A stretch of DNA of 43,016 nucleotides from Candidatus Thorarchaeota archaeon (GTDB lineage: Archaea > Asgardarchaeota > Thorarchaeia > Thorarchaeales > Thorarchaeaceae): assembly GCA_016840855.1 (NCBI GenBank), contig JAEORO010000011.1, forward strand, positions 1 through 43,016, written 5' to 3'. Both the position numbers and the translations under genes were made by a program. Of this stretch, positions 12,952-18,394 are shown one piece after another. The notes under the pieces were generated by a model. That model saw only the letters and a program-made list of their open reading frames with translations, was not told where the DNA came from and did no database searches. The first letter of the stretch is position 1. Every line of letters begins with the position of its first letter.

Positions 12952-15168
12952 TTACGAGGTCCGTTTGTAAATCCATCTGTTCCAAGAGCTGAGGCTTGGC
13001 ATTTCTTGAGGCATGCCTTTTCGCTCTCTAATCTCGAGGATGATTTCTTCCTGCATGTTACCAGGTAGAGGTTCAAATCCTCTAAACTCGTAACCGAAGA
13101 AACTACGACCTGCTGTTGCGCTTCTGAACTCATCTGCTATCCCGATTGTTTCAGCTGTGGGGAGCGTGCCTCTCACAGTGACTGTGTCTTCTTCGCCTTC
13201 AATCGTGACAATCTGACCACGGTGCCCAGTTAGGACCTTGATAACCTGACCCTGTGTATCGGTCGGTGTTTTGATATCGGTGTTGAGGACCGGTTCGAAG
13301 AGTCCAGGCTTACCAGTCAAGAAGCCCATATTTAGACCAGCACTTACCATTGTCGCAACTTCGTTGTAACCAGTATGAGCAGGATCTGTATGGACAGTTG
13401 CATCGGTAAGAACTACTTTGACACCCATTACAGGCTCTTTTGCGATTGGACCACCATCAATGAACTCTCGGAAGGTTGTCTGAAGATATGAGAAGATACG
13501 TTCGAACCTCTGAACACCACTCATTGCATCAACTAGCATTGAGGATTCATAGATATCTAGGATTTTACGAGCCTCTTTAGCATCCCATCCTGCTTCATCT
13601 CGAAGAATTGCTGCACGCTCTCTGTCAGGCATTTCAGCAGTGATTCTCCTCTTCCTGATGAGTTCGACTGTCTTCGCATCAAGTGGTTCAAGGTACATTC
13701 GAATCCTGTTGTGTCCATTAGGAGACTTGGTATGGAACTCGTCACCACGATCAGTCATCTTTTCACGATAGACAATGATGGGTTCTGAAACCTTGATTTT
13801 GACTTGCTCGTTGATTCTCTTTGTCAGAATCTCGATTTGAAGTGGATCAATACCATCAAGTCTGTACTCACCAGATTCTTTATCGTGAACAAACCGTGCT
13901 GTGGGGTCAGCCATAATCCACTTTGAAACCACTTCACCAAGTTTAGCAATCTCCTGTGGGTCAATTGGTTTGATGCTTCTACTTACAACAGGCTCACTGA
14001 CATATTCAATAGCTTCAAAGCCTTTCAAGCCTGAACCGGGTTCAACGAATGTTTCACCACTTGGACACATGAAACCAAATACAGAGAAGAGATTACCTGC
14101 AGGAACCTCATCCATATCAAGGATGTCAGTGATTTCTTGGACTCCCAATCGCTTGACCTTAGCATTCTGTTTCATGTTGACTAGTTGAATCTCTTGCCCT
14201 GCGTTAATCGTTCCAGAGAATACTCTTCCAATCAGTGTGGGTCTCTTGCTCTTAGGGTCGATGAAGATTTTTGTAATCATTCCAATAAGAGGGCCCTTCG
14301 AGTCACAATTTAAGAGTGCTTTACCCTCGTTGCTTTCAAGGTCACCCGACCAAATCCTAGGTATCTTGTATTTTTGAGCGTCTTTAGGATTAGGAAGGTG
14401 CTTCACAATCATCTCAAGGAGAGCATCATCTAATGGGAGATTATCACGAAGCCATCTATCATCACCCTCATTGTATTTCTCAAAGACAACAATGGGTTTG
14501 ATGTTCTTTTTCTCTAGCGTCTTCATTGTAAACGCCCAGCCAGTTTTGGCGCTACCAATTGCTACGCTTCCCTCTTGGAAACTGACTCTCCAGTCAAGTG
14601 CATATTCCTTTGGAGCGACCTTCTTGATTAGCTCGTTGACCTTTGCGATGATGATGTCAATACGTTCGTAGACTTTCGCAGGTGGGAGCTTCAACTCATT
14701 GATGAGTCGGTCCACCTTGTTGATGAATAAGACTGGCTTGCATGCCTCTCCACCCACTGCCAGACGAATGTTAGTTTCGGTCTGGGTCATGACGCCTTCC
14801 AAGGCGTCCACTAGAATAACTGCCCCATCACTGGCACGTAATGCTCGAGAAACCTCACCGGTGAATGAGAGGTGTCCAGGAGTATCAGACAGCTGAACGA
14901 GATACTCCTCGCCTTCGATTTCAAAGTTAAGCAGAACCACTGAGGTGAAGATAGTAATACCTCGCTCTTGCTCTTCTTCATCACTGTCTGTCATCAATGC
15001 CTGTCCAGCAGCTGCATCACTCATGAGACCGGCCCTACGCATTAGGTAGTCGGTTGTTGTGGTCTTACCATGGTCAATGTGAGCGCTGATTGATATGATT
15101 CTCTTATGCTCGAAATCATTTGAAAGGATGAGCCTCTTGATTGCATCTGGCTCTTTGATTTTTACCAT
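12952..15168 (-). CDS. Elongation factor 2 family GTPase, probably the divergent paralog aEF-2p
   Basis: AHIDHGKTT, ERGITI, DTPGH, NKVD, KSPNGHNR, FRSATAGR; start reassigned to ATG 15168 behind AGGAG; no rps12/rps7 neighbours. Confidence 0.88.
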   Translation of the reverse strand: MVKIKEPDAIKRLILSNDFEHKRIISISAHIDHGKTTTTDYLMRRAGLMSDAAAGQALMTDSDEEEQERGITIFTSVVLLNFEIEGEEYLVQLSDTPGHLSFTGEVSRALRASDGAVILVDALEGVMTQTETNIRLAVGGEACKPVLFINKVDRLINELKLPPAKVYERIDIIIAKVNELIKKVAPKEYALDWRVSFQEGSVAIGSAKTGWAFTMKTLEKKNIKPIVVFEKYNEGDDRWLRDNLPLDDALLEMIVKHLPNPKDAQKYKIPRIWSGDLESNEGKALLNCDSKGPLIGMITKIFIDPKSKRPTLIGRVFSGTINAGQEIQLVNMKQNAKVKRLGVQEITDILDMDEVPAGNLFSVFGFMCPSGETFVEPGSGLKGFEAIEYVSEPVVSRSIKPIDPQEIAKLGEVVSKWIMADPTARFVHDKESGEYRLDGIDPLQIEILTKRINEQVKIKVSEPIIVYREKMTDRGDEFHTKSPNGHNRIRMYLEPLDAKTVELIRKRRITAEMPDRERAAILRDEAGWDAKEARKILDIYESSMLVDAMSGVQRFERIFSYLQTTFREFIDGGPIAKEPVMGVKVVLTDATVHTDPAHTGYNEVATMVSAGLNMGFLTGKPGLFEPVLNTDIKTPTDTQGQVIKVLTGHRGQIVTIEGEEDTVTVRGTLPTAETIGIADEFRSATAGRSFFGYEFRGFEPLPGNMQEEIILEIRERKGMPQEMPSLSSWNRWIYKRTS

Positions 15169-15197
15169 CAGGATGTCTCCTTGTAACGTAGTTTTTT

Positions 15198-15290
15198 GTC
15201 CCCTCGTGAAAGCATGCGATAGCATGTCCCCAACTGTCCATTATCACACGAGAGAACTCGTCGGGGTCACCAGCAAAACCACTGGTGAAT
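15198..15290 (-). promoter_or_regulatory. Pseudoknotted 5' leader of the EF-2 paralog
   Basis: UCACCAGU/GCUGGUGA hairpin; CCCCGAC/GUUGGGG stem; its loop GUUCUCUCGUG pairs with downstream CACGAGGGGAC; CTTTTAAT box at about 15314-15321. Confidence 0.5.
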
Positions 15291-15336: not shown

Positions 15337-16116
15337 CTATCGATGAGCAATGACCACCATACGCTCTGAATTTGATGCATAGGGAACTCGAGGCAATATA
15401 TGCTGACCATAGAATTCTACTTTGGTAAATCCAATTTCCTTAAGCATCTCCTGAATCTCAAGAGCTGTGTACATTCGGATGTCGTTATTTGACAAAGCAT
15501 CTTGGTCCATTAACACAATCCGATCTTCTTCAGTATCAATGAACATAGCAGGTCTGCCAATAAGAACTCCAGCAGGCGCATCCAGCACATGTGGCTCGTT
15601 CAGTAGAAATCCACCATCAAGTTGAGTCCATGTCTTCTGAAATTTAGGGAGATTGTAGGGATTTATTAAATCTAGAAGCAGACATCCACCTTCTTTCAGT
15701 GCGCGATATGCACCTAGGAGTACTCGTTTGTTTTCCTCATGATTGAAGAATCCAAAACTATGACTTAACATCACTGCAGCCTTAAACTGGGACTCAAAGG
15801 TCATATCCCGCATATCACCAGCATAGAAGTTTACTTCCACCTTTTCCTCCTTGGCTGCTTTCTTTGCTACGTCAATCAAAGACTTTGCTATGTCGAATGC
15901 TGTGACCTTGAGACCTCGCTTGGCGAAGTCGATAGAGTGGCCTCCTGCACCACAGGCGATATCAAGAATCTCACTACCCTTCTTCAGATTCAATACTTCT
16001 ATGATGAAAGATACCACGAGCTTGTCATATTGCTCAATCCCCTGAATTGCCTGACGATGTCGGACCCGGAAAATCTCCGCCCAGAATTCGTCCCAGCCAA
16101 GCTCGACCTTCTCCAT
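15337..16116 (-). CDS. Class I SAM-dependent methyltransferase
   Basis: ILDIACGAGGH motif I, GDMRD, SFGFF, LKEGG. Confidence 0.9.
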   Translation of the reverse strand: MEKVELGWDEFWAEIFRVRHRQAIQGIEQYDKLVVSFIIEVLNLKKGSEILDIACGAGGHSIDFAKRGLKVTAFDIAKSLIDVAKKAAKEEKVEVNFYAGDMRDMTFESQFKAAVMLSHSFGFFNHEENKRVLLGAYRALKEGGCLLLDLINPYNLPKFQKTWTQLDGGFLLNEPHVLDAPAGVLIGRPAMFIDTEEDRIVLMDQDALSNNDIRMYTALEIQEMLKEIGFTKVEFYGQHILPRVPYASNSERMVVIAHR

Positions 16117-16263
16117 TGATCACACTTCCACCGAAGCCGTGGATTGACTTGGATATGAAGATTGTCATGAAGTTCAAAAATAGATGCAATATCCTAGCGT
16201 ATCACCGGATGGCTTTAAATCTCAAAGAATTAGCGGCTCCTCATGTACGATATGCTCCCATCT

Positions 16264-17046
16264 ATGGCTGAGGCTATCCAAACACGACAATCTTACAGAC
16301 AGTTCCACCCAGTTTCACTGACCTCGGAACACGAAGAACAAATCCATCAATTCATGTTAAAGTTGAATGCTCCTTTCAACCATCAAGTATCACTTGACTA
16401 TCATCAAGTTCCAAACGAGAAAAATGTCGTATATTTTCAAGGGCCAAAACAGTTTGCTACTTTATCTACAAAACGAACACCTGTAGATCAAGCTAAGTTA
16501 GGATTTCTCGGTGAGCAATTGATACTCTATAGCGAGAGTATCGGAGTGAGGACGTGTTGGATGGGGCATTATAAAACAAAAGAAGTGAACCAGATTGTAT
16601 ATGGGACATCGAAACCTGTCGTTGACAATCCTCTGTATTGCATAATTCTCTTGGGATATGTTCCAGAAAAAACAAGTTTCTTGGATCGCTTCTCGCAGAA
16701 GCGTATGTCAAAGAAGAACAGAACTGTGGAATCATTTCTTCATGATAATTCATTAACAGAATTTCCAGACTTCATCAGATATTCACTTGAACTTGCATCA
16801 AGAGCGCCTTCTGCAATGAATTCTCAGAAATGGTATTATCTAGTTCAACGAATTGATGATGGCTTTTCAATTGAACTTAGCAAACCCAAGGGGTATCAAC
16901 ACTTCAAGTGGAAGAATTACGATATTGATGTTGGCACCGCAGCAGCACACCTTTGGCTTGGCTTAATGACCAAAGGGATTGAGCCAAATGTGGTAGTAAC
17001 CAATATCGAAGAAAACGCAGTCTGGAAATTCATATGCACTCGCTGA
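16264..17046 (+). CDS. Nitroreductase family protein (tandem domains)
   Basis: IQTRQSYRQF, GVRTCW, RAPSAMNSQKW, IDVGTAAAH motifs; start uncertain (16243 or 16264). Confidence 0.85.
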   Translation: MAEAIQTRQSYRQFHPVSLTSEHEEQIHQFMLKLNAPFNHQVSLDYHQVPNEKNVVYFQGPKQFATLSTKRTPVDQAKLGFLGEQLILYSESIGVRTCWMGHYKTKEVNQIVYGTSKPVVDNPLYCIILLGYVPEKTSFLDRFSQKRMSKKNRTVESFLHDNSLTEFPDFIRYSLELASRAPSAMNSQKWYYLVQRIDDGFSIELSKPKGYQHFKWKNYDIDVGTAAAHLWLGLMTKGIEPNVVVTNIEENAVWKFICTR

Positions 17047-17061
17047 TAAAATAGAATTTGG

Positions 17062-17175
17062 AGAGAACCCGCACCTGTTTTCTCCGCCGGGAGGGACGCA
17101 GACTCAGTAACAGGAAACTCAAATTGAGCATAATCTGCGGATTTCTTCTCCACCTGAAATGGAGGCGAGTTCTCT
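17062..17175 (-). ncRNA. Candidate 114-nt pseudoknotted ncRNA (unassigned)
   Basis: 11-bp closing stem AGAGAACUCGC/GCGGGUUCUCU, four internal stems, CCUGUU/AACAGG pseudoknot; three G-U pairs orient it to the minus strand. Confidence 0.55.
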
Positions 17176-17360
17176 AAAAAACCTTTAGGTTATGCGTAAA
17201 TTTGAAATTTTAAGCAATTTTCGAAATTATCTTCGATTTTTCGACTTGAAGATAAAAATCCAATCGGGTTGATGGAAAAACAGATTTTGGAGTGTTTTTC
17301 ATATCAAAATGATGGATTGAATTCTTTTTTGCCAGCCCTGGTACCGAAAGTAGAAGAAGT

Positions 17361-17464
17361 TGGTAGCCCCGCCAGGATTTGAACCTAGGTCAAGCGGGCC
17401 AGAACCGCTTATGCATAGTCTAGGAAGCTATTGCTTGCCTAATGGACCACTACACCACGGGGCT
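17361..17464 (-). tRNA. tRNA-Gln(CUG) with a 28-nt D-loop intron and encoded CCA
   Basis: AGCCCCG/CGGGGCU acceptor, AGCGG-UUCUGGC-CCGCU anticodon arm, UUCAAAU T loop; removing 17415-17442 gives a canonical 76-nt tRNA. Confidence 0.93.
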
Positions 17465-17581
17465 ATTGTACAGACAAGTCTGTGTGACTCCGGAGTGACG
17501 TGCTGCATTTTTCATCTTTTCGGTTGATAGCTGACCTAATTCTGCTTTCAGTCATAATGGAGTGTTTGCAAAAGAAAGAGT

Positions 17582-18394
17582 CTAGATGCCAACTTTGAAG
17601 ATTAGGGCATCTCGGAGGACTCGCTGGAACATTCGTAGTAGATTTTTGCCCTCTGTAGCAATAGTATCAAACACTGGATAACCTTCCAGATCTAGCATCT
17701 GAACCATATAGTCAATTGGTAAAGCATTGGGAAGATCTCTTTTGTTTAGGGCGACTATGATTGGGAGTGTCGCCATCCGGTCTGTACCAAGAGCAATCCT
17801 TAGTTCTTGTATGGATGCAAGATTCTCATTCATCTGTTCAGGAGTTGAGTCAGCCATGAAAATGATACCATCGCAGTCACGAAGTACCTTGATTCTTTGG
17901 CTAGCATGACGTCTCTGTCCAGCCACAGTAAAGACATCAAACACAATTCTCTCACTCGCTGTGACAGGTACAAAGTCAAAGAAGGTAGTTCTACCAAGCT
18001 CATCATGAATTTCTATAATCTTCCCCTTTGCCAATGATCGGACATTAGCAAATAGCCATCTCAGGGCGGTAGTCTTACCAGAGAGAGAAGGACCATAGAA
18101 GACGATTTTGATGTGAACCCTCCCCACCTCATCCCGTTTGAGAACATGGCCTGGAACGATTTCAGCAGCACTTTGCGGCTTAATACGAGCGTACCGGGCA
18201 TGTTCAGCTGTGACCTCAGGATCAAAATGAATATCTTCACTAGAGGCAATTAATCGACCCATTGGAGTGGGAGTTGGTTCAGCGATTACAGGTTCCATCA
18301 CGGCCATACTTGTATCAACACTAGGCTCCGCTGATATCTCTTTTTCCTCTTTAGGCTTCTTTGAGCGCCGGGTTAATCTGCGAAATACAGACAA
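17582..18394 (-). CDS. MglA-like small GTPase with N-terminal extension
   Basis: KIVFYGPSLSGKTT, RTTFFDF, TVAGQ, NKRD, TIA motifs. Confidence 0.88.
   Translation of the reverse strand: MSVFRRLTRRSKKPKEEKEISAEPSVDTSMAVMEPVIAEPTPTPMGRLIASSEDIHFDPEVTAEHARYARIKPQSAAEIVPGHVLKRDEVGRVHIKIVFYGPSLSGKTTALRWLFANVRSLAKGKIIEIHDELGRTTFFDFVPVTASERIVFDVFTVAGQRRHASQRIKVLRDCDGIIFMADSTPEQMNENLASIQELRIALGTDRMATLPIIVALNKRDLPNALPIDYMVQMLDLEGYPVFDTIATEGKNLLRMFQRVLRDALIFKVGI

Follow-up and report, generated by a model that had tools for sequence, protein, structure and literature searches.

The locus

The DNA analysed here, called the window throughout, is a stretch of 43,016 nucleotides (nt) from a Candidatus Thorarchaeota archaeon (GenBank assembly GCA_016840855.1, contig JAEORO010000011.1, positions 1 to 43,016). 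Four genes follow one another on its minus strand in an order that is conserved among relatives: an Arf-like GTPase, a transfer RNA (tRNA) gene for glutamine, tRNA-Gln(CUG), a small structured RNA, and an S-adenosylmethionine (SAM)-dependent methyltransferase. The small RNA is the subject of this report. A preliminary description of the region had recognized a structured non-coding RNA on this strand, downstream of the tRNA gene, and had drawn it as a 114-nt pseudoknotted molecule with a tRNA-like end; all the strings that it quoted are present in window 17058-17175, minus strand.

Comparison with related genomes establishes the gene together with its extent, strand, fold, distribution and synteny. 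In alignments that include the flanks, the conserved block opens at GGAGA and closes at UCUCCA, which corresponds to window 17151 to 17059, and the 114 nt originally proposed are therefore too long, as the extra 24 nt at the 5' end belong to the promoter. We regard it as very likely that window 17059-17151 (minus strand) is a real, stand-alone gene of ~93 nt for a structured RNA that is independently transcribed. The RNA region is intergenic, and the plus-strand gene for a TM1586-type nitroreductase stops at 17046. An open reading frame of 78 codons on the minus strand (16917-17153) overlaps the RNA and was set aside as spurious, since the lengths of the homologues (76-115 nt) differ by non-multiples of three and the downstream sequence is unrelated. 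The RNA is filed here as a previously undescribed family of stand-alone structured small RNA that is specific to one Thorarchaeota family. Its parts are as follows.

17059 to 17151, minus strand: small RNA from GGAGA to UCUCCA, 93 nt, the extent of full-length covariance-model matches
17147 to 17151, minus strand: P1 5' strand GGAGA, pairing with 17060-17064; both-sided changes in 4/5 pairs, e.g., CGACA/UGUCG
17060 to 17064, minus strand: P1 3' strand UCUCC, followed by the terminal A at 17059; the 'UCCA' of the preliminary description
17136 to 17143, minus strand: P2 5' strand AAUCCGCA; both-sided changes in 8/8 pairs
17066 to 17073, minus strand: P2 3' strand UGCGGGUU, partner of AAUCCGCA
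17117 to 17129, minus strand: P3, short hairpin GCUCA-AUU-UGAGU, variable in sequence and length; both-sided changes in 4/4 pairs
17074 to 17114, minus strand: P4, long conserved hairpin with lower stem, 5'-side bulge, upper stem and GC clamp
17109 to 17114 with 17074 to 17079, minus strand: P4 lower stem CCUGUU(G)/(C)AACAGG; both-sided changes in 5/7 pairs
17103 to 17108, minus strand: P4 5'-side bulge ACUGAG, separating the two P4 stems; 4-6 nt among homologues
17100 to 17102 with 17081 to 17083, minus strand: P4 upper stem (G)UCU/AGA(U); both-sided changes in 3/4 pairs
17095 to 17098 with 17085 to 17088, minus strand: P4 GC clamp CGUC/GGCG, a thermodynamic prediction; near-invariant, so that covariation is silent
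17089 to 17094, minus strand: hexaloop CCUCCC, forming with the following GGC the 9-mer CCUCCCGGC; CCTCCCGGC is found in 78/78 distinct loci

Fold of the RNA

Covariance models were built in three rounds: the first from 23 members of the genus, the second from 76 members of the class, and the third with a corrected structure. The resulting alignment A3 holds 78 sequences, 69 of them distinct, and was fitted to the very structure that it tests; the covariation of P2 was already visible earlier, in a plain MAFFT alignment. Five covarying helices are present in A3 and all of them are nested, with no crossing helices, so the covariation describes a three-way junction without a pseudoknot, made of a terminal stem (P1 and P2), the hairpin P3 and the long bulged hairpin P4. 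Among the 69 distinct sequences, 90.0% of cells pair, compared with a mean of 79.6% in column shuffles (0/500 reach the observed value), and pairing drops to 37-49% when the partners are slid against each other. The covariation score is 0.296 versus 0.130, and both-sided changes occur in 24/28 pairs. Frequent G-U pairs, such as the GU of 37 sequences at pair 30-56, identify the strand as minus. The bases of the junction are not conserved.

The 118-nt stretch 17058-17175 folds more stably than expected by chance. Its minimum free energy (MFE) is -41.1 kcal/mol, against a shuffle mean of -31.5 (standard deviation 3.6; z = -2.64), and 1/200 shuffles was as good. The structured RNA on the minus strand was correctly recognized from the single sequence, and so was the helix CUCA/UGAG. 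The helix CCUGUU/AACAGG is likewise real, but it is nested and not part of a pseudoknot; the apparent crossing was due to CGCAGAU/GUCUGCG, which is not conserved, being possible in part of the genus only and competing with the covarying P2. Similarly, the pairing AAUCCGC/GCGGGUU, which had been offered as an alternative, is P2 itself, conserved and covarying. In one genus only, the GCGUC of the loop could also pair over a long range with a GACGC close to the 5' terminus; this possibility was dropped.

A divergent form of the RNA, scoring just 22.4 bits, lies on a contig of a thorarchaeal metagenome-assembled genome (L056:406-498, minus strand). The ACAGG partner of CCUGU appears there to stand near the 5' end and not after the tip hairpin, and the form may represent a rearranged topology.

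Distribution

The RNA was traced in several ways. BLAST located it in 22/24 genomes belonging to the window's genus (E 3e-6 or better, 76-92% identity), and the search of 16 genomes from other families gave only 20-nt chance matches. A scan for the core motif, using one genome per species, returned 32 contigs; 24 of these, every one of which has the RNA, are labelled Candidatus Thorarchaeota, Promethearchaeota or uncultured archaeon. In the other eight (six bacterial, one Nitrosopolaris and one Methanoperedenaceae), the motif is flanked by sequence without the rest of the RNA. The first covariance model had exactly one full-length match in 76/87 genomes of the class, covering 14/17 genera. The second model detected the RNA in 26/26 sampled genomes of the Thorarchaeota family and in 0/124 genomes from 26 other Asgard families under the stricter filters of Infernal, and the third, run with filters off, recovered diverged copies in two genera of the family that had previously been missed. 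The RNA is therefore present in 16/16 genera of one Thorarchaeota family, with one copy per genome; it was not found in the sole sister-family genome examined.

No known family accounts for it. The whole window gave 0 matches to Rfam 15 at gathering thresholds. At E<=10, the region 16900-17600 gave five matches, of which two are weak ones on the tRNA and three are noise, and none lies on the strand of the RNA. Full-text literature searches returned no description of the RNA, and neither did term look-ups in passages of one preprint, its cluster tables and supplements excepted.

Promoter and probable terminator

Two elements frame the RNA gene.

17174 to 17181, minus strand: TTTTTTAG, a TATA-like box and the form that the family consensus ATTTATAGG takes in the window; its end is 22 nt from the first G of the RNA in the alignment with relatives
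17046 to 17056, minus strand: T-rich tract TTCTATTTTAT, directly 3' of the RNA; a likely archaeal termination signal

The box upstream of the RNA is strongly conserved (family consensus CTATAGATTTATAGG). The 8-mer TTTAWARG ends 21-24 nt ahead of the RNA in 60/78 distinct loci, and the T-rich variant TTTTTTAG, typical of the window's clade, stands at the same place in 13/78. A distance of 21-24 nt is the canonical archaeal spacing from TATA box to start. Given this spacing, transcription of the RNA most likely starts at or beside the first G of GGAGA. When the 15-mer form of the box was searched in five genomes, matches occurred in two of them and only at the RNA gene, save one site with 1 mismatch in one genome. 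On the other side, the 12 nt 3' of the RNA are on average 82% pyrimidine (78 loci); a T run of at least 3 lies within 15 nt in 51/78 loci, and one of at least 4 within 20 nt in 40/78. No RNA run was listed as containing window 16600-17900. Of four metatranscriptome runs compared with 16950-17500 at 80% likeness, a single contig piece could be placed, and it falls on the tRNA only.

The preliminary description had named a different element, the BRE/TATA-like CGAAAATTGCTTAAAA (BRE, B recognition element), as the promoter. This sequence lies about 55-70 nt upstream, in the zone of 40-110 nt, and the canonical distance is occupied by TTTTTTAG (17174-17181). The same zone, 40-110 nt 5' of the RNA, holds several TTCGATTTTT(C/G) motifs and another TATA-like box (CATTTTAGCG / TTTATGC), in window 17190-17260 (minus strand) and in loci L093-L108, and both are kept across genera. 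Upstream activating sites or a second promoter are candidate roles for them.

The position of the promoter also bears on the idea that the RNA mimics a tRNA, which had been put forward, as speculation, for a 114-nt pseudoknotted RNA with an NCCA end and a UCA loop of the selenocysteine (Sec) type. In the window, a 10-bp stem, a 5-bp hairpin with a UUUCAGG loop and a UCCA end can all be drawn, and a tRNA gene adjoins. Among the 77 distinct homologues, the 10-bp closing stem has 10/10 pairs in 1/77, the window itself, and at least 8 in 10/77; its 5' strand (GAGAACUCGC) overlaps the TATA-like box. The CUCCA/UGGAG hairpin keeps 5/5 pairs in 14/77 and at least 4 in 18/77, almost exclusively members of the genus of the window; its loop is centred on UCA in 14/77. 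The 5' half of this hairpin lies in positions 17152-17175, that is, in the 24 nt between the TATA-like box and the likely start site, so the anticodon-like loop stands upstream of the presumed transcript. Nor is the NCCA end single-stranded: its two C's form outer P1 pairs and covary with the 5' G's, as in CGACA...UGUCGA (pair 1-152: 58 GC, 2 CG, 1 AU and 1 UA; pair 4-149: 61 GC and 6 CG). The last four bases are TCCA in 65/77 and differ in 12/77 (TCCC, TCGA, TCAA and others). The fold is nested, and there is no match to tRNA or tRNA-Sec: in agreement with the remark that the RNA 'is not a tRNA', ARAGORN reports only the tRNA-Gln, and the Rfam tRNA and tRNA-Sec models find nothing on 17059-17175 at E<=10. 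With neither the UCA loop nor the NCCA end conserved among homologues, sequence comparison has already refuted tRNA mimicry as a conserved feature, and we give it practically no weight.

Neighbouring genes

The genes around the RNA, and one conserved motif, are listed here from upstream to downstream as read on the minus strand.

17582 to 18394, minus strand: Arf-family small GTPase, upstream of the tRNA on the same strand in 63/76 loci
17361 to 17464, minus strand: tRNA-Gln(CUG), 104 nt, including a non-canonical intron of 28 nt and an encoded CCA; its place upstream of the RNA is conserved
16243 to 17046, plus strand: TM1586-type nitroreductase gene, a convergent insertion between RNA and methyltransferase; in 2/76 loci, the window and one sister genome only
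16152 to 16168, minus strand: promoter-like motif ATGACAATCTTCATATC, conserved and going with the methyltransferase; at a near-fixed distance before its ATG and at widely varying distance from the RNA
15337 to 16116, minus strand: Class I SAM-dependent methyltransferase (P0001), downstream of the RNA on the same strand in 72/76 loci

The upstream tRNA-Gln of the preliminary description was recovered by ARAGORN as tRNA-Gln(CUG), the single tRNA in the window, at 17361-17429 by default and at 17361-17464 with introns allowed. Its intron lies in the D-arm region, and for this reason both the default call and that of Rfam (24.9 bits, below the tRNA gathering score) are shortened to 17361-17429. 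In 69/76 loci, the strand of the RNA carries a tRNA 130-1229 nt upstream, which ARAGORN calls Gln(CUG) in 64; the five intron-bearing tRNAs that are called otherwise are probably the same tRNA-Gln gene. In relatives, the tRNA-Gln gene either lacks an intron or has one of 34-35 nt following position 39; for several of these genes the call is wrongly Val, Ser, Lys, Pro, Leu or Trp. A search of five other Asgard genomes with the tRNA-Gln, meant to locate an analogous RNA, gave no match at E<=1e-5.

Besides the nitroreductase gene of the window, unrelated insertions of about 130-940 nt occur in other lineages at the same spot between the RNA and the methyltransferase, and their recurrence marks an insertion hot spot. 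Two genes downstream lies a gene for a GTPase of the EF-2/EF-G family (757 aa, window 12952-15225, minus strand).

The methyltransferase has only generic matches in Pfam and NCBIfam. Its orthologue was found in 42/43 sampled genomes of the family and in 0/157 genomes of other Asgard families (E<=1e-40), and it is single-copy, with 58-89% identity across the family. This distribution is that of the RNA, although one 91%-complete genome has the RNA and no methyltransferase was found in it. The predicted structure (mean predicted local distance difference test score, pLDDT, 87.7) is nearest to methyltransferases acting on small molecules or peptides, among them the bacillithiol N-methyltransferase NmbA, P. 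horikoshii 1WZN, CypM, GSMT and CcbJ. It resembles small-molecule N-, S- and C-methyltransferases and is not close to RNA methyltransferases. The idea that the enzyme modifies the RNA or is guided by it lost ground with these matches.

Upstream of the gene stands the motif ATGACAAGCTTCATATC, followed ~36 nt on by a Shine-Dalgarno (SD)-like GGAAGUG and the ATG; the motif looks like a BRE/TATA element and would serve as a promoter. In its 17-nt form, ATGACAA(G/T)CTTCATATC, it is found at 16152-16168 (minus strand) and in all related loci, conserved across the family. Its conservation exceeds that of a usual TATA box, so it could combine promoter and operator.

The invariant tip of P4

Conservation within the RNA is concentrated at the tip of P4. 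The cap reads GCGUC-CCUCCC-GGCGG, and its 9-mer CCUCCCGGC is found in 78/78 loci, unchanged across 16 genera. In 43/69 MFE structures, the CCUCCC hexaloop is closed by CGUC/GGCG, and the thermodynamic prediction gives the six bases a mean unpaired probability of 0.94, exceeding 0.8 in 64/69. The 5' strand of the clamp differs in four lineages and GGC shows no compensating change, which implies that GGC is conserved for more than pairing. The helices of the scaffold drift and compensate while CCUCCCGGC stays constant, and this points to the tip of P4 as the working end of the molecule. We lean, by a narrow margin, towards the view that the tip is the functional site and acts in trans.

Possible mechanisms

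In the mechanism that we place first, the RNA would act in trans through its exposed, C-rich P4 loop CCUCCC. Base pairing of the loop with G-rich ribosome-binding sites of the GGAGG type on mRNAs would reduce their translation, in the manner of bacterial small RNAs (sRNAs) with C-rich loops. Specific pairing with SD-like sequences is the leading mechanism, at a probability of roughly 0.3. The complementarity of CCUCCC to the GGAGG-type ribosome-binding sites of the host holds at the level of the motif, and such sites are in use: at 1896 crude gene starts, GGAGG occurs 132 times at -16 to -6 versus 16 times at -30 to -20. A scan of 31 family genomes for the 9-mer GCCGGGAGG revealed no extended target; the 9-mer occurs 511 times versus 365 times for the reversed control, and 31 of the 511 are expected as the gene itself. 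In the target scan, eight copies of GCCGGGAGG were met exactly 15 nt apart in one relative (G048:C113:42561-42674), a spacing that indicates a tandem 15-nt repeat. Same-sense matches of UCCCGGCGG in the 3' halves of tRNAs were judged coincidental.

Several points weigh against the pairing mechanism. An anti-SD match of 6 nt is too short to count as specific evidence. Complements of the 16-nt loop region, sought genome-wide with up to 2 mismatches, were found only on the antisense strand of the gene itself, and complementary 9-mers gave 57 window hits, merging to 38 sites, a number that 20 shuffles also span (14-71). Loop and neighbouring clamp are equally invariant, and an invariant clamp with uncompensated changes is less suggestive of a simple antisense seed than of a tertiary contact or of a protein that recognizes the sequence specifically. 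The methyltransferase is strictly linked to the RNA (72/76 loci, both genes being restricted to one family), a hint that the function of the RNA is connected with this enzyme gene. Lastly, the start site, the terminator, expression and the entire mechanism are deduced.

Recognition of the P4 tip by a protein is about equally likely. The purine-purine mismatch, the CGUC/GGCG clamp and the CCUCCC loop would together form the binding site, and the RNA would be part of a stable ribonucleoprotein (RNP) or a decoy; its protein is possibly one that normally reads the C-rich 3' end of 16S ribosomal RNA (rRNA), or a family-specific one. This would explain why the loop and the adjacent stem are both invariant and why the GGC strand is fixed though its partner strand changes. 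An RNA that is single-copy and family-wide, with a highly conserved, strong-looking promoter that is unique in the checked genomes, also has the profile of a housekeeping RNP RNA. Set against this, no candidate protein was identified, the fold of the neighbouring methyltransferase is that of a small-molecule enzyme and not of an RNA-binding or RNA-modifying one, and inspection of the alignments revealed no kink-turn (K-turn), Sm site or box motif. As for the K-turn, CA replaces the GA of the bulge throughout one genus, and no GA adjoins the stem on the opposite strand. C/D box and H/ACA RNAs were discarded as well, as the alignments contain no RUGAUGA and no ACA after P1 and there is no Rfam match. 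A self-cleaving or other ribozyme, to which a compact multi-helix fold with an invariant block might point, is very improbable: no Rfam ribozyme family matches even at E<=10, the junction is unconserved, and invariance is limited to the bases of a single hairpin tip. Hammerhead and hepatitis delta virus (HDV)-like topologies were rejected by inspection.

The linkage to the methyltransferase could also reflect a different role, in cis, either as a riboswitch-like leader that senses a linked metabolite or through read-through that disturbs the methyltransferase promoter. The enzyme gene follows on the same strand in 72/76 loci, usually 64-126 nt off, the RNA and the methyltransferase orthologue share one distribution, and the terminator is weak in many genera, a T run of at least 4 within 20 nt being present in just 40/78; together this is a genomic signature typical of riboswitch candidates. 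Yet the fixed position in the 5' untranslated region that marks a riboswitch or cis leader is lacking: the interval from the 3' end of the RNA to the ATG ranges from 64 to 1005 nt, exceeds 140 nt in 17/70 distinct intervals and 390 nt in 6, and in the window contains a complete convergent gene. Irrespective of what precedes it, the methyltransferase gene retains a promoter-like motif and an SD of its own at constant spacing, and with an interval so variable the RNA and the methyltransferase are most simply separate transcription units. In one 91%-complete genome, mentioned above, the RNA is present and the enzyme was not found. Riboswitch ligand pockets are usually found in junctions, whereas the invariant bases here sit in a hairpin tip, and, since kin are not independent, the shared synteny may be simply inherited. 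We consider a role in cis rather unlikely.

A more elaborate version of the pairing mechanism would join these strands. The RNA might be a Thorarchaeota-specific riboregulator that mimics the anti-Shine-Dalgarno sequence: binding of the clamped CCUCCC to GGAGG sites in competition with 16S rRNA, or its titration of a factor that recognizes the 16S 3' end, would globally tune translation initiation, in genetic coupling to the family-specific methyltransferase, to whose product or substrate the RNA would respond. We consider this version rather unlikely. If it holds true, archaea of the lineage closest to eukaryotes would possess a regulatory RNA of a new class.

Significance

To our knowledge, almost nothing is known of the non-coding RNAs of Asgard archaea beyond rRNA, tRNA, signal recognition particle (SRP) RNA and RNase P RNA. 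The RNA described here is a clean, testable case, with a single copy, a defined promoter, compensatory changes in 24/28 pairs, a constant block of nine bases and a fixed neighbourhood. The covariance model and alignment could be converted directly into a new RNA family entry, and the invariant C-rich loop offers a handle for pull-downs and mutagenesis as soon as Thorarchaeota can be cultured or expression systems are at hand. The locus also teaches that a convincing fold drawn from a single sequence, with tRNA-like stem, CCA and 'anticodon' loop, can largely be promoter DNA.

Comparison with known systems

The RNA shares with 5S rRNA, SRP RNA and RNase P RNA its single copy, strong promoter, lineage-wide presence and clustering with a tRNA gene, and differs from them in being confined to one family. 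Full-length matches to 5S rRNA and RNase P RNA over the cut-off occur elsewhere in the host genome and in 4/4 relatives searched; for SRP RNA, full-length matches occur elsewhere in the host genome and in 3/4 relatives, over Rfam's cut-off in 1/5 genomes. These matches elsewhere rule out the RNA as the genome's copy of any of the three. With tRNA, tRNA-Sec and tRNA-like structures it has in common a length of ~90-100 nt, paired ends, CCA as the last bases in most members and an adjoining tRNA gene, but tRNA and tRNA-Sec have D and T arms, a cloverleaf and a conserved anticodon loop, all of which are missing here, and the CCA is paired and not conserved as such. Like the 5' leaders of riboswitch type, it is a conserved structured RNA upstream of one enzyme gene, on the same strand, in most genomes; unlike them, it has its own terminator-like tract, it stands at varying distances from the gene, often with interruptions, a separate promoter-like motif belongs to the gene, and what is conserved is a loop and not a junction.

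The 3' end of 16S rRNA carries the anti-Shine-Dalgarno sequence, ...CACCUCC.... The RNA likewise displays a CCUCC core in single-stranded form, although only 5-6 nt are common to the two, the core stands in a hairpin loop and not at a free 3' end, and the host's own 16S and 23S rRNA genes are absent from the assembly. In bacteria, RsaE/RoxS and the C-rich hairpins of S. aureus RNAIII are examples of sRNA elements whose C-rich loops pair with Shine-Dalgarno sequences. The present RNA is set apart from them by its archaeal host, the lack of an Rfam match at E<=10, the one C-rich loop on a three-way junction, the invariant clamp and the negative outcome of the searches for an extended target. It resembles them in being a stand-alone RNA with a C-rich hairpin loop that is predicted to be unpaired and is complementary to the GGAGG sites of its host.

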